The position numbers were made by a program, and so were the translations under genes. A stretch of DNA of 64,000 nt from Candidatus Onthoplasma sp. (lineage in GTDB: Bacteria > Bacillota > Clostridia > Christensenellales > UBA1242), in contig JAZUAD010000021.1 in NCBI GenBank assembly GCA_045637825.1, positions 84 through 64,083 on the forward strand. Direction: 5' to 3'. Below, piece after piece: positions 34,286 through 41,895 of this stretch; within the stretch, counting starts at the first letter, position 1; every line of letters begins with the position of its first letter. The notes beneath the pieces are model-generated. The model did no database searches and was not told the origin of the DNA. It saw only the letters and a list, made by a program, of their open reading frames with translations.

Positions 34286-35293
34286 ATGATAAAAATTATT
34301 GTGGGCTTTATACTAAGTTTTATTTTAGGCATTGTTTTAATGCCTTTGATAATTAAGATTATACGAAAATTTAGTTGCTCACAAACTATTTTGGAATATG
34401 TAGAGGAACACAAATCCAAACAAGGTACGCCAACAATGGGTGGGGTAGTATTTTTCATATCAACCCTACTAATAGTGGTGTGCCTGATGGATTATAGCAC
34501 CGAACTAGCAATGGCTTTGGGGGTTGGACTGGCCTTTGCTATAATTGGATTTATGGACGATTTTATCAAGGTAAAGTTTAAACAGAATTTAGGTCTTAGA
34601 CCGTATCAAAAAATTATTGGACAAGTAGGTGTTGCGTTAATACTTGCCGTATACATATATTTTTGGTCACCTAATAAGGGGATAATATATTTGCCCTTTA
34701 CCTTTAAAGCAATAGATTTAGGAATATGGATAATTCCTTTAGTTATAATAGTTTGTTTAGGTGCAACTAATAGCGTAAACTTAACTGATGGGTTAGATGG
34801 CTTGGCTGGTGGTGTAAGTGTAATATATAGCGGAATATTTATTGCTTTGATTACAATTTTTTCAACTCTTGCCTTTAAAAATGGCGAATTGGATAGTTTT
34901 GTAACTATGTATAAGGATATGGCACTACTGCTTGCAATTTTTATGGGTAGCATCATAGCTTTTTTGATATTTAATACTAATAAGGCAAGTATATTTATGG
35001 GAGATGTAGGTTCTCTTGGTATTGGAGGACTATTTGCCTCCAGTGCTTGTATAATGGGTTTTGAATTTATGCTTGCAATAGTGGGCGTTATGTTTGTAGT
35101 ATCGGCCTTGTCAGTAATACTGCAAGTATTGTATTTCAAAAAAACAAAAGGTAAACGTATATTTAAAATGGCTCCACTTCATCATCACTTTCAAATGTGT
35201 AGGCATAGTGAGGCAAAAATAGGTTATATTTACCAAACAATAACACTAATGATAGGACTTGTTGTAATTCTTTTAACTTTGCTTTTTATCTAA
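34286..35293 (+). CDS. mraY: Phospho-N-acetylmuramoyl-pentapeptide transferase
   Basis: Motifs KxGTPTMGG, NSVNLTDGLDGLA, MGDVGSLGIGG, PLHHHF. Confidence 0.95.
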   Translation: MIKIIVGFILSFILGIVLMPLIIKIIRKFSCSQTILEYVEEHKSKQGTPTMGGVVFFISTLLIVVCLMDYSTELAMALGVGLAFAIIGFMDDFIKVKFKQNLGLRPYQKIIGQVGVALILAVYIYFWSPNKGIIYLPFTFKAIDLGIWIIPLVIIVCLGATNSVNLTDGLDGLAGGVSVIYSGIFIALITIFSTLAFKNGELDSFVTMYKDMALLLAIFMGSIIAFLIFNTNKASIFMGDVGSLGIGGLFASSACIMGFEFMLAIVGVMFVVSALSVILQVLYFKKTKGKRIFKMAPLHHHFQMCRHSEAKIGYIYQTITLMIGLVVILLTLLFI

Positions 35294-35331
35294 AAGTTAT
35301 AATTGCTAATTAATTTTAATATATATATTTT

Positions 35332-36432
35332 ATGATTAAGTCCTACAAAAATTCAATTATAATAGTAGTTTGTACAATAGTTTTGGTTAGCGTAGGGGTG
35401 ATTATGGTGTATAGTGCCAGTAAATACTCTGCCAACCTTAATTATGGTAATAAATATTTTTATATGACCAAGCAGTTGGTTGGTGCAGTGTTAGGATTAG
35501 GTGGTATGATTGCTACATCATTAATCAACCATAAGATATATAAAAAGTTTTATATATTAGCATATATAATAGGACTGGTTTTATTGTCGTTATTGTTTAT
35601 TCCAGGACTTGCCAAGACGAGTTATGGGGCAACTAGATGGATAAATTTGGGCTTTTTTACTATTCAACCTAGTGAAATTGCAAAGTTTTGCTTAGTATTG
35701 TTTTTAAGTGTGGCATTGACTAGAGGTAAAGATATTAATAAACCTAGTAAATTATTAGGGATAATATTTGCTGGAGTATTATATTGCGTACTTATTATGC
35801 TTGAGCCAAATATGTCAATTACAATATGTGTAGGACTTACATTGGTGGTAATGCTATTTATTGGCGGGCTTAATATTAAAACCTTTGCAATAGGGACTAT
35901 ACCGATTATTTTATTAGGTGTGGGGCTTGTAATGTTGGAGCCATATCGTATGAAGCGAATAATTGCCTTTATTGACCCCTGGCAAAATCCACTAGAGGAG
36001 GGTTATCAATTAATTCAATCTTTATATGCAATATCCAGTGGAGGATTGTTTGGTGTGGGGCTAGGTAACAGCCGTCAAGCACAATTATTTTTGCCTTTTG
36101 CTGAAAGTGATTTTATATTTTCCATAATTTGTGAAGAACTTGGCTTTATAGGTGGAGGAGCAATACTTTTAACTTATTTAATATTAATAATAACAATAAT
36201 TAAAGTAGGAATTAAGGCAAAAGATAATTATTCCAAGTTTCTGTGTATAGGTATTGCTTGTGTTTTAGGAATTCAAACAATGCTCAACATCTGTGTTGTC
36301 TCTGGCTCAATTCCGCCAACAGGCCTGCCACTTCCGTTCATTTCCGCAGGGTCAACAAGTTTGCTAGTTTTTATGAGTGCGATCGGGGTGGTTTTAAATG
36401 TTGATAAACAATCTAGAAAAGGTGTAATTTAA
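35332..36432 (+). CDS. ftsW: SEDS-family peptidoglycan glycosyltransferase FtsW/SpoVE
   Basis: 10-TM SEDS protein with RWINLGFFTIQPSE, ESDFIFS and the C-terminal PPTGLPLPFISAGSTS motif. Confidence 0.9.
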   Translation: MIKSYKNSIIIVVCTIVLVSVGVIMVYSASKYSANLNYGNKYFYMTKQLVGAVLGLGGMIATSLINHKIYKKFYILAYIIGLVLLSLLFIPGLAKTSYGATRWINLGFFTIQPSEIAKFCLVLFLSVALTRGKDINKPSKLLGIIFAGVLYCVLIMLEPNMSITICVGLTLVVMLFIGGLNIKTFAIGTIPIILLGVGLVMLEPYRMKRIIAFIDPWQNPLEEGYQLIQSLYAISSGGLFGVGLGNSRQAQLFLPFAESDFIFSIICEELGFIGGGAILLTYLILIITIIKVGIKAKDNYSKFLCIGIACVLGIQTMLNICVVSGSIPPTGLPLPFISAGSTSLLVFMSAIGVVLNVDKQSRKGVI

Positions 36433-36446
36433 AAATTTTATTTAAG

Positions 36447-36493
36447 AATGTATGCAAATTGCAATCAAGGTGTATACATTTTTATTTTTTTGT
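36447..36493 (+). terminator. Intrinsic terminator after ftsW (cassette module, copy 0)
   Basis: 10-bp stem aatgtatgca/tgtatacatt (one G-U pair), 14-nt loop, then TTTTTATTTTTTT. Confidence 0.65.
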
Positions 36494-36501
36494 GTTATAC
36501 T
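36493..36501 (+). promoter_or_regulatory. Extended -10 promoter (TGTTATACT) for the first HD cargo gene
   Basis: TGn + TATACT directly after the terminator T-run and ~24 nt before the ATG. The same arrangement recurs in all four units. Confidence 0.45.
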
Positions 36502-36524
36502 TGTTTTTAACAAGGAGATTTTCA

Positions 36525-37190
36525 ATGAAACAAGTTGAAGAAATTATAAATAAATTAAGAAATAAAGTTGAAGAATATTTTAGCAAAGATGCTAGTGGAC
36601 ATAATATAGACCATTTAGAAAGAACATTAAAATATGCTTTATATTTACAATCTAAAGAAGGTGGAGATATTATTGTTGTGGCTACATCTGCTTTTATTCA
36701 TGACATACATAGAATTTTGGGCGCTGAACAAAATAAGTTTGTTTCGCCAAAAGAAAGTTTACCTGTTGTTGAACAGTTTTTAGATGAAATTGAATTAACA
36801 CCAAAACAAAGAGAACATATATTATTTGCTATTGAACACCATGAAGAATATTCTTTTGGTGAAGGTGGTGTTAATGTTCAAGATATTGAAAGTAAAATTT
36901 TACAAGATGCAGATAATTTAGATGCGATTGGTGCAGTTGGGATTGTTAGAACTTTCAAATATGGAATGGCTCATAATGTAGTTGATTATGACCCAAGCGT
37001 TCCTTTATATCAAAATGAATATAACGAGAGTAAAGAAGATGCATCAACAATTCATCATATCAATAATAAACTTTTAAGATTGGGTGAACACATGAACACT
37101 AAAACTGCTAAAAGGTTGGCAAAAGAAAAAATAAAATTAATGAAAGATTTTATGGATATGTATATTGAAGAAGTTGTTGGAAAGGTTTAA
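36525..37190 (+). CDS. HD-domain phosphohydrolase, YpgQ/YedJ-like (putative (d)NTP pyrophosphohydrolase); cassette cargo 1
   Basis: Motifs SGHNIDHLERT ... AFIHDIHR ... HHEE ... LQDADNLDAIGA (H..H, HD, D pattern). RBS aaggaga lies before the ATG at 36525. The upstream part of the listed ORF (from 36459) overlaps the terminator and promoter. Confidence 0.75.
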   Translation: MKQVEEIINKLRNKVEEYFSKDASGHNIDHLERTLKYALYLQSKEGGDIIVVATSAFIHDIHRILGAEQNKFVSPKESLPVVEQFLDEIELTPKQREHILFAIEHHEEYSFGEGGVNVQDIESKILQDADNLDAIGAVGIVRTFKYGMAHNVVDYDPSVPLYQNEYNESKEDASTIHHINNKLLRLGEHMNTKTAKRLAKEKIKLMKDFMDMYIEEVVGKV

Positions 37191-37213
37191 TTTTTAATAA
37201 AGTATTTATAATA

Positions 37214-37360
37214 CAATAACTCGTGTTAAGAGGCTCAATCCCGCCAACAGGGTTGCCGTTGCCATTTATATCTGCCGGCTCAACAAGTTTGCTTGTTTTT
37301 ATGAGTGCGATTGGTGTGGTGCTGAATGTGGATAGGCAATCACGGGAGAATAAACTTTAA
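37214..37360 (+). pseudogene. Displaced ftsW 3'-end fragment, copy 1 (43 codons, intact frame, no start codon)
   Basis: 37232-37360 translates to GSIPPTGLPLPFISAGSTSLLVFMSAIGVVLNVDRQSRENKL*. The first 38 codons match the FtsW C-terminus with one conservative change and 19 synonymous codon differences. A TAA lies 4 codons upstream. Confidence 0.85.
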
Positions 37361-37370
37361 TTTTTTAGTA

Positions 37371-37417
37371 AAAATGTATACAATTTGTAATGAAAAAGTA
37401 GACATTTTTATTTTTTT
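37371..37417 (+). terminator. Hairpin terminator of cassette module, copy 1
   Basis: Arms aaaatgtatac/gtagacatttt (1 mismatch), then TTTTTATTTTTTT. Homologous to the ftsW terminator. Confidence 0.55.
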
Positions 37418-37418
37418 G

Positions 37419-37427
37419 TGTTATAAT
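37419..37427 (+). promoter_or_regulatory. Extended -10 promoter TGTTATAAT for cargo 2
   Basis: TGnTATAAT directly after the T-run. RBS aggaga downstream. Confidence 0.5.
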
Positions 37428-37449
37428 GTAAGCACAGGAGAAGAATGAT

Positions 37450-37686
37450 ATGGGATTTTTTGATATTTTTAAAAAGAAGAAAGAAGAGTGGTATAAGCAA
37501 AAAGAAACAGATATTATTTGGTGGTTAGATAATAGCGATAAAATTGGAGAGCATGTGTTTAGTTTTGATAAGAAAAAAAAGTTTAATTTGTTTAGAGATT
37601 ATCCTTATCAATTAACTGCTGAGCAAAAAGAAATATTTGATAAAGAAAATCCGTATTGGGCAGATTTTTTTAAAGATAGAAAATAA
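37450..37686 (+). CDS. Hypothetical 78-aa protein (Trp/Lys-rich, no TM helix); cassette cargo 2
   Basis: ORF with RBS aggaga 8 nt upstream and its own promoter module. I recognise no family. Confidence 0.5.
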   Translation: MGFFDIFKKKKEEWYKQKETDIIWWLDNSDKIGEHVFSFDKKKKFNLFRDYPYQLTAEQKEIFDKENPYWADFFKDRK

Positions 37687-37732
37687 TGTAAAGAGCAATA
37701 ATTTTGCTTTTTTTATTAAAAATTTTATAATT

Positions 37733-37975
37733 CAATAACTGATGTTAAGAGGATCAATTCCACCAACAGGATTACCCGCGTCAAAACTCTCGTTTATTTT
37801 GCTTGTGCGCGCAGTTGCTTGCACATTCGCTTAACACTCGGTTTTTCCTTTCCACTTCAAAGCTTTCGCTTTGTGGGGTCCCCAAAAGTCTGCCGGATCA
37901 ACAAGTTTGCTGGTTTTCATATTTGCTATCGGAGTTGTTTTTAATATAAATAGGAAGAGCAAGAAAAACAATTAA
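37733..37975 (+). pseudogene. Displaced ftsW 3'-end fragment, copy 2, interrupted by a 111-bp insertion
   Basis: GSIPPTGLP (37751-37777), then the insertion, then SAGSTSLLVFIFAIGVVFNINRKSKKNN* (37889-37975). The four codons for LPFI are missing. Confidence 0.8.
37778..37888. other. 111-bp GC-richer insertion of unknown nature inside fragment copy 2
   Basis: About 47% G+C by manual count, against an AT-rich background. The (-) strand folds as CCAC-AAAGC-GAAA-GCUUU-GAA-GUGG (GNRA-capped hairpin). Contains the GGGGTCCCC palindrome. Confidence 0.4.
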
Positions 37976-38013
37976 ATTTTTTGAATAAGTGTATACACTT
38001 TTTGTTTTGTATA

Positions 38014-38022
38014 TGTTATAAT
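38014..38022 (+). promoter_or_regulatory. Extended -10 promoter TGTTATAAT for cargo 3
   Basis: Follows the short hairpin aagtg-tata-cactt plus T-run (37987-38008). RBS agaggg precedes the ATG at 38045. Confidence 0.5.
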
Positions 38023-38044
38023 AAAATTGTTAGAGGGCATTGTT

Positions 38045-38764
38045 ATGAGCATAAAAAACGAAAGAGAAGAAAAAATTCTTCAAATATCAGTTAGAAAAAA
38101 GTTTAGTTATAAAGATATTTTAAAAAGCAATTATTATAAAGAAACATATACTAAAATCGAAGAGCTTAAGAAAGATTTTTATGTTAACCATGGCTTTATT
38201 CATATTAAGAATGTAACTAATAATGCTGAATATTTAGCAGATCTTTTTTGCCTTGATTCAAGACAGAAAGAATTGTTACTTATAGCAAGTGTGTTGCATG
38301 ATATTGGTTATCTAAAAGGGAGAGAAAACCATGACGTAAATGGCAGTGTATTGGCTTATGAATATCTTAAAAATCTAATGCCTAAAGAAGATGTTGATTT
38401 AATTTGCAGTGCAATAGCAAGTCATGGTGGCAAAAATGATGAAGATTATATTAACCCTATTTCAATGTGTTTGATTTTAGCAGACAAATTGGATTTTACT
38501 AAAGATAGATATAAAGATGATGGAAAAGAACATGTTAATCTACCATTGTTTTTAAGTATAGAAAAAATTATGTTAACAAAAGATGATATAAATAATTTTA
38601 CACTTAAAATTTACACTACAAGCAAGCCTCTATTCGATAATTTAGATGACAATTATTATTTTAAAAAACTCTTTGAGGTTTTAAGAAAATTAAAAAATAT
38701 TTGCAATTATGATGTTAAAATTAATTTTATTGATTGCAAAAAAGATTTTGAATGCAATAGCTGA
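38045..38764 (+). CDS. HD-domain phosphohydrolase unrelated to cargo 1; cassette cargo 3
   Basis: Motifs HGFIHIKNV ... LHDIGY ... NHDVNGS ... ASHGG ... ILADKLDF. The ATG at 38045 follows RBS agaggg. Confidence 0.7.
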   Translation: MSIKNEREEKILQISVRKKFSYKDILKSNYYKETYTKIEELKKDFYVNHGFIHIKNVTNNAEYLADLFCLDSRQKELLLIASVLHDIGYLKGRENHDVNGSVLAYEYLKNLMPKEDVDLICSAIASHGGKNDEDYINPISMCLILADKLDFTKDRYKDDGKEHVNLPLFLSIEKIMLTKDDINNFTLKIYTTSKPLFDNLDDNYYFKKLFEVLRKLKNICNYDVKINFIDCKKDFECNS

Positions 38765-38893
38765 TGGGTGGTCCAATCGACAGGATTACTATTGACCTTC
38801 ATTAGTGTTGGCTCAACAAGTTTGCTAGTATTTATGAGTGTAATAGGGGTTGTACTAAATGTTGATAGACAAAGTAGGAAAAGTAAGATTTAA
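38755..38893 (+). pseudogene. Displaced ftsW 3'-end fragment, copy 3 (most degenerate; overlaps the stop of cargo 3)
   Basis: Encodes VVQSTGLLLTFISVGSTSLLVFMSVIGVVLNVDRQSRKSKI*, against native VVSGSIPPTGLPLPFISAGSTS... It has a ~4-codon deletion and several replacements. Confidence 0.7.
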
Positions 38894-38904
38894 AAAATGT
38901 AAAC

Positions 38905-38937
38905 AAAATGTATGCGTATTGTATACATTTTTTTGTT
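38905..38937 (+). terminator. Hairpin terminator of cassette module, copy 3
   Basis: Arms aaaatgtatgc/gtatacatttt (one G-U pair), 5-nt loop, T-run. Confidence 0.55.
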
Positions 38938-38941
38938 TATA

Positions 38942-38950
38942 TGATATAAT
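38942..38950 (+). promoter_or_regulatory. Extended -10 promoter TGATATAAT upstream of the dual-HEPN gene
   Basis: TGnTATAAT directly after the T-run. A second TGTATAAT lies near 39026. Confidence 0.4.
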
Positions 38951-39056
38951 ATAAATTATTAATAATTAATTATTACATTTTTATAAAATAATGATTATTA
39001 ATATAAGCTATATAACTTTTGGTGTTGTATAATATTTATGTGATGGAGATTATTTT

Positions 39057-40589
39057 ATGGATGCAAACAAACTATTAGAAATTGCAGATAAAACTAAAAT
39101 GTTTGTTAAAGAATTAAACAATGCAAACAAAAAAATTGAGTTATTTAATACTCAAGAATATATGAATGAAATAATGCAATATAAAACCTATGAAGCAAGA
39201 AGTTCTTTTTTAAAAAGGGCTTTGAGAAAAGTATATAAAGAAGTATATAATGTTGTACATAATTTTACAAAACAGGACTCGATAGAAGTATTGTTGCCAT
39301 TATCGCTAAATTGCTACAATCAAGATTGGGATTATGTTACCAAGGCAATACAAGATAGATATAATGATCCTAATGATTTTATACATAGCATAACTAATGG
39401 AGATGGAGAGAACAGGTCAATTGAAGATATAATACAAGTAAAAAGTTGGGGACATATTCGTCCTAAATATGATGTAAATTTTTTTATAAAAGTAAGAAAT
39501 GGTTTGTCACACTCCAAGTTTGATTATGATGAAGAAAACAACAAGTTAATTATTAATATGTATCAAGGAACGTTTGTTGTTGAGTTTGATATGTACTTTA
39601 TGCACTGGTTTCCTATTAATATATGGCGAATGAGCGAACAATCGTCTTCGATAAATTCGGAACAAAGACTCTTGTTAATCAATAACTTACCTTGCAAAAC
39701 TGCTTATTCAGTATTAGTAAAAAATACTAATAGAGAATTAACCAATGCAATAAAAAGGAAATTTAGAAATGCGGGTGTTAATGCCTCGCTTAAACAATAT
39801 ATAGAAAATATTAAAACAACGTTAGATGCAGACCCAAATATAACTTTAGTAGATAAGATAGAGATATTGACTCCACTTTTATCGGTTGATGATATGTCAA
39901 AAGAATTAACTGAAAGTCAAGCAGATGCCATAGTTACGATATTTGAATATTTGGGCTTGACTGTAGAAGAGAACCAAAAGGTTGAATTATATCAACTGCT
40001 AGGAAAAGATAACGTATTATTAACTTTTTTATTAAACGATATGATGGTATCTAAAGAGATTGCTGAAGATGATAAGCGCATTATGTTATCTAGAGGAGTT
40101 GCAACCAAAATAGATAAGCAAAGCAAAAATATTAGACCATATCAATATTTATTTGGATTAATGACATTATGTGAAGATGTAAGTGAAAGTAAATTTAATT
40201 CTAACATAAAGCAATCTCCAATCCCTTATATTATGGACGAGCTTTGTACATTTGCAGATATTGCTTATTTTAATTATGTATTTAATTATTTGGCACAAAA
40301 ACTAGAACAACCTCAAGAATTAGCATCACTACCAGCTACCGATTATTTTAAAGAAAATAGTTATACAAGTGGCAAAAGTATATCTGATACATTTTACTAT
40401 ATAAGGAATTGTGTTGTACATCCTAATAGAGTAATAAAGGTTAAAGATGTGTATATACTAACAGATTATGAACGAGATGGATCTTTAGTTTTTTCTGCTG
40501 AAATTGAGTGTGATAAGTTTTTTGAACTTGCTAATTTAGTTGTTTTCAAAATGAAGGAACATAACATAACTTTAAACAACACAAATTAA
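39057..40589 (+). CDS. 510-aa protein with two RNxxxH (Rx4H, HEPN-type) motifs; candidate single-chain dual-HEPN RNase
   Basis: R147-N-G-L-S-H152 (nt 39495-39512) and R450-N-C-V-V-H455 (nt 40404-40421). Each motif sits at the end of a predicted helical stretch and is followed by a similar beta-like segment. RBS ggaga. No signal peptide or TM helix. Confidence 0.55.
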   Translation: MDANKLLEIADKTKMFVKELNNANKKIELFNTQEYMNEIMQYKTYEARSSFLKRALRKVYKEVYNVVHNFTKQDSIEVLLPLSLNCYNQDWDYVTKAIQDRYNDPNDFIHSITNGDGENRSIEDIIQVKSWGHIRPKYDVNFFIKVRNGLSHSKFDYDEENNKLIINMYQGTFVVEFDMYFMHWFPINIWRMSEQSSSINSEQRLLLINNLPCKTAYSVLVKNTNRELTNAIKRKFRNAGVNASLKQYIENIKTTLDADPNITLVDKIEILTPLLSVDDMSKELTESQADAIVTIFEYLGLTVEENQKVELYQLLGKDNVLLTFLLNDMMVSKEIAEDDKRIMLSRGVATKIDKQSKNIRPYQYLFGLMTLCEDVSESKFNSNIKQSPIPYIMDELCTFADIAYFNYVFNYLAQKLEQPQELASLPATDYFKENSYTSGKSISDTFYYIRNCVVHPNRVIKVKDVYILTDYERDGSLVFSAEIECDKFFELANLVVFKMKEHNITLNNTN

Positions 40590-40632
40590 TAATGACTTTA
40601 ACGTAAAAAGTAAATGTATCATATACTAGATT

Positions 40633-41895
40633 ATGAATACATATAATGATAAATTTATAATAGTTGGTGGTAACGAACTTGAGGGTGAGGTTATTATCCA
40701 AACCAGTAAAAACGCAGTTTTACCTATACTGGCGGGCAGTATACTCTGTGATAAACCAATGGTTATTAAAAATGTACCTAACCTATTAGATGTAAGTAAT
40801 ATGTTTGCTATTTTACGCAATCTTGGAGTAAAGCTGGATTATTTTAATAAAGACTGCTATATAGATGCAAGTAATATAAACAGTACTATGCTTAATCAAG
40901 AATTATGTAAAACATTGCGTTCATCAATATTTTTGCTAGGTCCTTTATTAGCAAGGTTTAAAAAGGCAATTATTTCTTATCCCGGAGGGTGTGATATTGG
41001 TAATAGGCCTATAGATTTACATTTAGGAGGGCTACAAAAACTAGGAGTTAAAATAACCAATCGACATAGTCTTATATATTGCGATGCTAAAGATATGAAA
41101 AGTGGGGTAGTTCAATTAGATTTTCCGAGTGTTGGTGCTACTGAAAATCTTATGATGAGTGCGGTGTTTTTAAATGGAACTACACGTCTTATTAATGTTG
41201 CCAAAGAACCAGAGATAGTTGACCTGCAAAATTTTTTAAATAGTATGGGGGCAGATATTTCAGGCGCTGGCTCCTCAGAGATTACTATTAATGGTGTAAA
41301 TACTTTACATACTACACAATATACGCCAATAAGCGATAGAATTGTAGAAGGAACGCTTATGCTTGCTACTGCAATTTGTGGTGGAAGGGTTTGTTTAAAA
41401 AACACAAATTTTAAAAATAATCAAAGTTTAATTGCAAAACTTTCGTCAGTTGGTTGCCAAATAGATACTAAAAATGATATAATACATATAACTTCAAAGG
41501 GACGGCTTCCATCTATTGATTTGATAGACACTCAAGTATATCCAGGATTTCCTACAGATTTGCAGGCCCAAATGATGGCTCTTCAAACGGTTAGTGAAGG
41601 TGTTAGTGTTATGTGCGAAAATGTGTTTGAAAATCGTTATAAGCACGCTAAAGAGTTGATTAAAATGGGTTCAGATATAATTCTTCGTGACCGGGTGGCT
41701 GTTGTTAAGGGTGTGAGTGAACTTGCAGGTGCTCCTGTAGATGCTAGCGATTTACGTGCTGGTGCGGGCTTGGTGCTAGCGGGCTTAAAAGCAAAAGGTT
41801 ACACCACAATCAATAATATCTATCATATTGATAGGGGTTATGAAAACTTTGAAAATATATTAACAAGTTTAGGTGCAGATATTAAAAGATTATGA
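40633..41895 (+). CDS. murA: UDP-N-acetylglucosamine 1-carboxyvinyltransferase
   Basis: N-terminus FIIVGGNELEGEV, and active-site Cys in YPGGCDIGNRPIDLH. Confidence 0.93.
   Translation: MNTYNDKFIIVGGNELEGEVIIQTSKNAVLPILAGSILCDKPMVIKNVPNLLDVSNMFAILRNLGVKLDYFNKDCYIDASNINSTMLNQELCKTLRSSIFLLGPLLARFKKAIISYPGGCDIGNRPIDLHLGGLQKLGVKITNRHSLIYCDAKDMKSGVVQLDFPSVGATENLMMSAVFLNGTTRLINVAKEPEIVDLQNFLNSMGADISGAGSSEITINGVNTLHTTQYTPISDRIVEGTLMLATAICGGRVCLKNTNFKNNQSLIAKLSSVGCQIDTKNDIIHITSKGRLPSIDLIDTQVYPGFPTDLQAQMMALQTVSEGVSVMCENVFENRYKHAKELIKMGSDIILRDRVAVVKGVSELAGAPVDASDLRAGAGLVLAGLKAKGYTTINNIYHIDRGYENFENILTSLGADIKRL

Follow-up and report, generated by a model that had tools for sequence, protein, structure and literature searches.

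The locus described here lies in the window, that is, in the complete stretch of 64,000 nucleotides that was analysed, which belongs to a MAG of 1.05 Mb with 31% G+C (G000). The GTDB genus of this genome (Candidatus Onthoplasma, Christensenellales) is represented by 64 species genomes. The window carries, inside a division-and-cell-wall cluster, an array with the order ftsW, cassette 1, F1, cassette 2, F2, cassette 3, F3, cassette 4, murA, in which F1 to F3 are displaced copies of the end of ftsW and F0 is the copy within ftsW itself. The features are:

35332-36432, plus strand: ftsW, 366 aa, SEDS family (Pfam FTSW_RODA_SPOVE, E = 8e-95, residues 11-362).
36304-36432, plus strand: F0, the last 43 codons of ftsW, working copy of the repeated end, within the ftsW ORF.
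36433-36505, plus strand: junction module P0 (repeat family D3), in which an AT-rich palindrome (ATGTATRCA..TGTATACAT) and a T-run overlap a TG-extended promoter, TATACA-17-TATACT.
36525-37190, plus strand: cargo 1, an HD-domain phosphohydrolase (YedJ/PRK10119-like; Pfam HD, E = 6e-9; NCBIfam PRK10119, E = 1e-25, under its cut-off).
37191-37231, plus strand: tail, a conserved non-coding junction motif (TATAATACAATAACTSRTGTTAAGAG), repeat D5, which stops exactly at the start of the ftsW homology.
37232-37360, plus strand: F1, displaced ftsW end of 42 codons and a stop, encoding an intact peptide that equals the genus consensus over 38 codons.
37361-37432, plus strand: junction module P1, a terminator-like palindrome and TAGACA-17-TATAAT with TG.
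37450-37686, plus strand: cargo 2, a DUF7675 protein of 78 aa (Pfam PF24723, E = 8e-34).
37710-37975, plus strand: tail and F2, an older displaced end, of which codons 1-9 (37751-37777) and 14-43 (37889-37975) are parted by an M element; several amino acid replacements.
37778-37888, minus strand (sense): the M element inserted in F2, a structured mini-element of about 105 nt (covariance model R1, 105.8 bits).
37976-38030, plus strand: junction module P2, shortened (repeat analysis).
38045-38764, plus strand: cargo 3, a second HD-domain protein, unrelated to cargo 1 and weakly Cas3-HD-like (family-library searches).
38768-38893, plus strand: F3, the oldest displaced end; the left part is decayed (indel, replacements), the right part still reads ..VLNVDRQSRKSKI up to the stop.
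38894-38955, plus strand: junction module P3 (repeat and promoter scan).
39057-40589, plus strand: cargo 4, an ORF for a protein of 510 aa with no Pfam, NCBIfam or PADLOC match.
40633-41895, plus strand: murA, the conserved right-hand neighbour, which directly follows ftsW in 25 scored genomes of the genus.

The 3' end of the target gene is thereby doubled as direct repeats, F0 and F1 bracketing cargo 1; the working ftsW uses the proximal F0, and its ORF is intact. The Pfam FtsW/RodA/SpoVE domain takes in the repeated end, and the stretch PTGLPLPFISAGSTS is the most conserved loop of the SEDS family, with the last membrane helix coming next. After every ftsW-end copy the same terminator/promoter module (P) is found. 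Although the junction contains a palindrome (ATGTATACA..TGTATACAT), most of it consists of 129 nt of ftsW coding sequence. Three of the P modules share a promoter layout (36473-36501, 37399-37427, and 38922-38950 in the promoter scan), and a TG-extended -10 with a -35-like TATACA precedes cargos 1, 2, and 4, both being matches to the consensus only. Behind cargo 4 there is no ftsW-end copy; the conserved leader of murA begins at once. Within G000 both P and the tail are confined to this locus, and an Rfam search of positions 35000-41000 with E up to 1 yielded no match.

The tail motif at 37207-37231 and 37726-37750 contains a TATAAT box and, in frame, a TAA followed by an ATG or GTG; in the case of F1 this is the GTG at 37223. 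The frame of 45 codons started in this way (37223-37360, open) ends at the palindrome with its T-run, and the motif may serve in recombination, act as a promoter, or belong to a mini-gene. It is found ahead of most displaced ends in at least eight species, including the loci of G019, G020, G043, G047, G054, G056, and G079, and across species this non-coding motif is more conserved than the silent sites of the adjoining ftsW end. The proposal that the tail consists of decayed ftsW codons from upstream of the end was not convincing (identity of 0.33-0.36 in register versus 0.25-0.30 when shifted). Elsewhere in G000, on contig C36, a perfect 38-nt direct repeat (hairpin, T-run, TATGTG) at 71166-71203 and 71911-71948, 745 nt apart, surrounds one gene and resembles a second single-gene unit bounded by a duplicated terminator/promoter module.

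It had been stated in the initial annotation that F1 differs from F0 almost only at synonymous sites, and a codon-by-codon recount gave exactly the numbers claimed: within the first 38 codons 19 differ synonymously, one by a K-to-R exchange (AAA/AGG), and 18 are identical. Non-synonymous divergence is confined to the tail of the peptide, where codons 39-42 are all replaced before the TAA stop that both copies share. Over all 43 codons 19 are thus identical, 19 synonymous, and five non-synonymous, at a nucleotide identity of 76% (129 nt each). For codons 1-38 the method of Nei and Gojobori yields 22 synonymous differences at 30.5 sites (pS 0.72) and two non-synonymous ones at 83.5 sites (pN 0.024), from which a dN/dS of about 0.01 is obtained. 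The two classes of divergence are therefore not comparable: two or fewer non-synonymous differences among the 24 changes would arise by random scatter with p = 4e-11 (binomial; Fisher p = 7e-15). Since working ftsW ends from different species within the genus have a mean pS of 0.73, equal to that between F0 and F1, the synonymous sites must be considered saturated. A recent local duplication is excluded because of the pS of 0.72, and a long-decaying pseudogene by the zero replacements relative to the genus consensus peptide over 38 codons, as had been argued; the pattern agrees with the earlier view that both ends worked for a long time in separate lineages and were then united. A diversity-generating retroelement was also considered and was rejected, the differences between F0 and F1 being synonymous and involving all four bases; no RVT_1 match was found in five genomes of the genus other than G000.

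The displaced ends are in different states. Intact are 6-7 of about 15 full-length copies, among them F1 of G000, G019_1, G043_1, and both copies in G054. Frameshifts are present in G043_2 and G079_1, and replacements are found at residues that show no variation among working copies (P4L, P5S, G16V, L20S). The damage rises with the distance from ftsW in G000, G043, and G019, an exception being G047, in which the first displaced copy is the more damaged one. A particularly similar pair is found in G059 (L074:100-1240), where the working and the displaced end are 91% identical and all seven differences in the shared coding part are synonymous. The homology starts there at the same nucleotide as in the other arrays, and the displaced end, which contains an M element, has behind it another, partial end of still greater age. 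From its sequence this locus looks like a young version of the same event, and it fits the import of an allele that was selected elsewhere.

From which lineage F0 and F1 stem could not be deduced from nucleotide identity or pS, which have no power here: the closest ends reach only 83% identity. Since all ends fall within 75-83% identity of one another, a donor lineage cannot be named. Even in the nearest species (the clade of G000) the ftsW bodies have a pS of 0.54-0.81, and the end is in sliding windows not an outlier. Placement by BLASTN or phylogeny fails, since saturation of the synonymous sites extends even to the closest species available.

What does separate the ends is their type. Native ends (murA adjacent, n = 25) mostly read STSLF..NVDKQT.. 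and have long, varied tails; Ser17 is encoded by AGY in 19 of the 25 and Ser19 by TCN in 24. Ends linked to cassettes (followed by P or displaced, n = 28) read GSIPPTGLPLPFISAGSTSLLVFMSAIGVVLNVDRQSRKxKI before the stop, with TCN for Ser17 in 26 of the 28 and AGY for Ser19 in half of them. For the codon family of Ser17 the difference between the two groups has a Fisher p of 2e-7, uncorrected for kinship. The tail type ..LLVFMSAIGVVLNVDRQSRKxKI with its stop is found only beside inserts. In clade A, to which G000 belongs (murA 79-89% identical), the cassette-free genomes G048 and G063 read GL..IVV.. (GL..STSIVVFMSAMGIV..), as does G003, the downstream region of which is not assembled. The ends of G000, G022, G052, and G054 are of the cassette type, and those of two further members are chimeric, G051 switching between codons 2 and 20 and G045 after codon 34, i.e., in the tail only. 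Upstream of the end, ftsW of G000 keeps the sequence of its clade, and in four clade-A genomes the switch from clade to cassette type occurs within a few codons of the homology border.

Judged by these sequence types, the cassette-carried ends are a genus-wide pool of their own, from which both F0 and F1 were imported. Since both are of the cassette type, neither is the original end of the lineage. The earlier conclusion that a replacement end was imported horizontally is thus upheld as far as import is concerned (by cargo, end type, and clade pattern), and it has to be amended in that neither of the two copies is the resident one. Nor was the original end simply pushed to the far right, since there is no ftsW-end copy after the last cassette and since in G054 the end adjoining murA is also of the cassette type. 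In G051 (L044) and G045 (L046) the first 1.3 kb show one P-headed cassette between ftsW and murA and no displaced end. Their chimeric ends with differing switch points and the lack of a displaced end suggest a double-crossover replacement rather than an insertion.

Within the genus, ftsW and murA are adjacent in 25 scored genomes, inserts are present in about 25, and one to four displaced ends in about 15. The ancestral state was apparently ftsW directly followed by murA. In the gaps of about 35 genomes (loci L029-L099) a total of 98 ORFs was found, nearly all of them unique to one genome, and 14 small ORF families are common to several species, at differing positions in the arrays; family-library searches of gap ORFs covered the four cargos of G000. 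The ftsW-murA gap is a hot spot for accessory genes. For example, cargo 1 recurs as the second cassette in G020 with about 90% identity at the DNA and 91-93% at the protein level, whereas the FtsW proteins of the two hosts are 63% and their MurA proteins 49% identical; the ftsW ends flanking the shared cargo are 78-85% identical. The M-interrupted end has an identical left junction (..GGATTACCC|GCGTC..) in G000, G049, and G052. From this junction and the shared cargo 1 it follows that both cargo and junction modules move between species. Homologues of the HD protein are present in 11 other genomes, in none of which they adjoin ftsW.

The arrays seem to be confined to the genus, since a second ftsW end was found in only one of 80 metagenome ftsW loci; P and tail motifs had no match in viral contigs. 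A search of metagenomes for strains of the same species revealed nothing closer than 65% protein identity, and neither the metagenome scan nor one DNA sequencing run contained a strain with F1 fused to the ftsW body. This run (X1, an animal-gut metagenome) gave 6% of words and, at 85% likeness, fragments of relatives only. Compared with positions 35300-41000 of the window, it contains many contig pieces from related organisms that are 85-99% alike to the junction modules, and some of these contigs join modules differently, e.g., the P0 end at 36499 to the tail at 37215.

The insert in F2 deserves separate description. It is 111 nt long and one copy of a structured family of about 105 nt (M), which was found by covariance model search with more than 500 copies in 62 of the 64 genomes. 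In an alignment of 36 copies 15 of the 19 base pairs of the scaffold show compensatory changes, with none of 500 shuffles reaching the observed values, and 95.9% of the cells are paired as compared with 44-49% when the partners are slid. The family has no Rfam match, and nothing relevant on such elements was found in the literature. Most copies lie behind a gene end. The typical layout is the gene end, a short spacer (often a terminator), a 9-15 nt reverse complement of the target, M, and a duplicate of the gene end. The antisense segment just 5' of M (9-15 nt) matches the target at about -9 to +4 around the start of the repeat in 13 of 16 copies, and in 14 of the 16 this match beats at least 95% of the control windows. 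Among the copies scanned, 19 have a match to the post-M sequence (up to four mismatches in 22 nt) located 22-92 nt upstream of M. Targets are 3' and 5' ends of tRNAs, ftsW (two sites), and other protein genes; tandem copies occur. Further copies in G000 are at C36:13787-13893 (L035:1440-1546) and C13:1110-1215.

In some genomes the working ftsW itself ends in M, namely in G020 (L032, reverse strand), G019 (L031:1080-1300), G011, G076, and G053. There the frame runs from ..NVDR into M (..WGPHKTNVLKGKGKTEQ and stop), behind which part of an older ftsW end is found. Comparison of the stretch borne by the element with the displaced one in G020 gives seven differences over 39 nt, six of them synonymous, which is the same signature as that of F0 and F1.

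Taken together, F1 is most likely a complete, formerly working 3' end of ftsW that was displaced when a one-gene cassette recombined in at the end of the gene. While it evolved, F1 would have been subject to the same selection as functional ftsW ends. Each cassette unit would be made up of the last 43 codons of ftsW, which cover the conserved loop motif of the SEDS family and the final membrane helix, a palindrome resembling a terminator, a promoter with an extended -10, a single cargo gene, and the tail motif. As each cassette would bring its own ftsW end, the essential gene stays whole. By recombination in the shared homology of the ftsW ends the gene body would be joined to the incoming end, and the previous end would be left downstream as a relic, which would then be free to decay, F1 being still intact and F2 and F3 damaged. 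Repeated rounds could have led to the array of four cassettes between ftsW and murA. It is the order of events and the route of recombination that we infer here.

With respect to this route there are two options. Homology-driven recombination between the junction modules of imported or excised DNA is slightly favoured, the arguments being the varied switch points in G051 and G045, the cassettes without a displaced end, and the length of the homology modules. A recombinase acting in trans on the junction of tail and end may be envisaged instead, albeit with less confidence; for such a site-specific enzyme speak the fixed left border, the conservation and locus specificity of tail and P, and the low identity of the modules between species.

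Searches for an enzyme gave the following picture. A recombinase is found neither in the window nor inside any of the cassettes, and no integrase-bearing parent element was found at the ftsW loci of the 64 genomes. On the scale of the genome a single conserved XerS-like recombinase is encoded, beside lexA, in addition to sporadic phage-type tyrosine and large serine recombinases. G000 has four tyrosine-recombinase matches, none of them on the array contig, the conserved one, an ORF of 354 aa on contig C24 (L038), being XerS/XerC/XerD-like; the contig of the window has no Phage_integrase match, and the Resolvase match of the genome sits on contig C8. Large serine recombinases are present in G000 (on C8), in G043, and partially in G020, and were not found in G054 and G009. 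Apart from the housekeeping XerS-like enzyme no recombinase is common to the array-bearing genomes. With four known dif sequences as queries no dif-like site was detected. There was also no IS110 DEDD domain in 64 genomes, and searches of five high-copy genomes for reverse transcriptase and TnpB found neither; a Y1 transposase was present in one of five genomes searched. Guide-like antisense segments inside the cassettes amounted to 8-mers at chance level only.

It should be noted that several findings count against displacement of a working end by a cassette as proposed here. These are the lack of a nameable donor lineage, the original end not having simply been pushed to the far right, the lack of a recombinase in the window and in the cassettes, and the fact that no strain with F1 joined to an ftsW body was found. 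The decay order in G047, which does not follow position, also has to be mentioned. And finally, between species the junction modules have diverged too far for RecA to recombine them efficiently, which, together with the conservation of the tail beyond that of synonymous sites, rather fits a site-specific enzyme.

The most serious alternative, which is nevertheless somewhat doubtful, is that the repeated ends are primarily recombination sites and that cassettes are captured in the manner of integrons. A recombinase provided in trans would read the junction of tail and ftsW end or the P palindromes and insert circular cassettes at a fixed point. The coding capacity of the ends would then be kept because a broken end would kill the next host. 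In favour of this it can be said that the left homology border is at the same nucleotide in all arrays, including those with diverged tails, that tail and P are restricted to the locus and conserved across species, that single cassettes are shuffled among species and positions, and that the type switches near the border in four clade-A genomes. However, there is no integrase near the array, the XerS-like enzyme being the only one that the array genomes have in common. The switch points differ between G051 (codons 2-20) and G045 (after codon 34), both of which have a cassette without a displaced end, no circular junction was seen, and the P and tail motifs are without a match in viral contigs. 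Going one step further, the ftsW-murA gap might even be a new kind of gene-capture platform in which a junction module of about 270 nt, composed of the tail motif, the spare end of an essential gene, a terminator, and a promoter, is the recombination site for single-gene cassettes that are moved in trans, either by the housekeeping XerS-like recombinase or by the machinery that may move the guide-bearing M mini-elements, by which gene ends are replaced all over these genomes. Although we regard this as unlikely, it would, if true, amount to a capture system akin to integrons whose protection lies in the portion of a cell-division gene that it carries.

Much less probable is that F1 is a small gene selected in place. 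It would encode a 45-aa peptide (MLRGSIPPTGL...), with the TATAAT and the GTG or ATG start provided by the tail and the transcript ended by the palindrome and T-run, and the synonymous-only divergence would then reflect a present constraint on a mini-protein or a small RNA. Indeed, the ORF 37223-37360 is open, an ATG or GTG is at the same in-frame spot in 14 of 17 tails (counted from the printed sequences), the tail is more conserved than the third codon positions of the end, 6-7 of the full-length displaced copies have remained intact, and the young pair in G059 differs synonymously only. But there is no Shine-Dalgarno sequence upstream of the start codon, four displaced copies with the same tail have stops or frameshifts, others have replacements at residues invariant in working ends, and F2 is split by an insertion. 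That F1 was duplicated within the genome and later diverged from F0 or was gene-converted, without any import, is highly improbable, for although tandem direct repeats can come from slippage or unequal crossing-over and the pair in G059 is 91% identical, a pS of 0.72 with a pN of 0.024 would need protein-level selection on both copies since the species of the genus split, both copies are of the cassette type, which is foreign to the clade, and the intervening cargo is common to a distant species.

If F1 is a displaced working end, the last 43 codons of a gene for an essential peptidoglycan polymerase, among them those for the most conserved motif, would be routinely exchanged between species on small mobile cassettes. 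In these gut bacteria the 3' end of ftsW would therefore have a history separate from that of the rest of the gene, which should be borne in mind in phylogenetic work and in scans for recombination. Moreover, the locus offers a small natural model for the stacking of accessory genes at a single site, with the essential gene undisrupted and without a resident recombinase, and the array-specific junction modules provide a concrete substrate in the hunt for the enzyme. By the M element in F2 the locus is linked to a second, more puzzling class of elements that replace gene ends.

Several known systems have features in common with the array. In staphylococci, SCC elements (SCCmec and the ccr-less pseudo-SCC elements) insert serially at the 3' end of rlmH (orfX), where they form tandem composite arrays between direct repeats of the gene end. 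They carry accessory cargo, and some units have no recombinase and are probably mobilised in trans; repeat lengths are about 15-18 bp, the elements have tens of kb, and their enzymes, the Ccr serine recombinases, are known. The array, too, is characterised by serial insertion behind a single conserved gene, direct repeats of the gene end, and accessory cargo, but its target is ftsW rather than rlmH, its repeats are about 200-270 bp long, and no Ccr-type enzyme is linked to it.

Accretion of ICEs and CIMEs occurs at tRNA genes or at the 3' ends of protein genes, e.g., of ICESt1 and ICESt3 in fda of Streptococcus thermophilus. It also generates direct repeats of the target 3' end and tandem units, some of them without an integrase, the parents having integrases of known families and short att cores. 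Repeats of the 3' end and tandem units are found here, too, whereas an integrase-bearing parent is absent from the ftsW loci of the 64 genomes. With integron arrays and CALINs the locus shares single genes that are parted by a repeated junction element, shuffled cassettes, and a polar order. It differs from integrons in that there is no IntI nearby (IntI is absent from CALINs by definition) and in that the junction, which contains a palindrome, is dominated by the coding end of an essential gene, with a terminator and a promoter, and seems not to be an attC hairpin. And while integron cassettes are mostly promoterless and depend on a common Pc, cargos 1, 2, and 4 are each preceded by a promoter consensus.

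Closest in principle is the insertion of prophage e14 (and of phage 21) into icd of Escherichia coli K-12, where the element sits in the 3' end of a housekeeping gene, supplies a replacement end, and leaves the earlier end of the host beyond it as a fragment (Hill, Gray and Brody 1989, PMC210168; re-examined in PMC13626634). The gene runs into the prophage, the icdC fragment lies beyond, and excision results in multiple synonymous changes (PMC13626634). As in ftsW, the swap of the ends alters many synonymous sites and only conservative residues. But e14 is a prophage of 15 kb with its own integrase, SOS-induced excision, and a single insertion, whereas the units described here are 0.6-1.7 kb long, carry a single cargo gene without a recombinase, form a stack of four in which each has its terminator/promoter module, and have spare ends that form a genus-wide pool. 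The principle is thus known from e14 and icd/icdC; its serial form with mini-cassettes that lack a recombinase is new.
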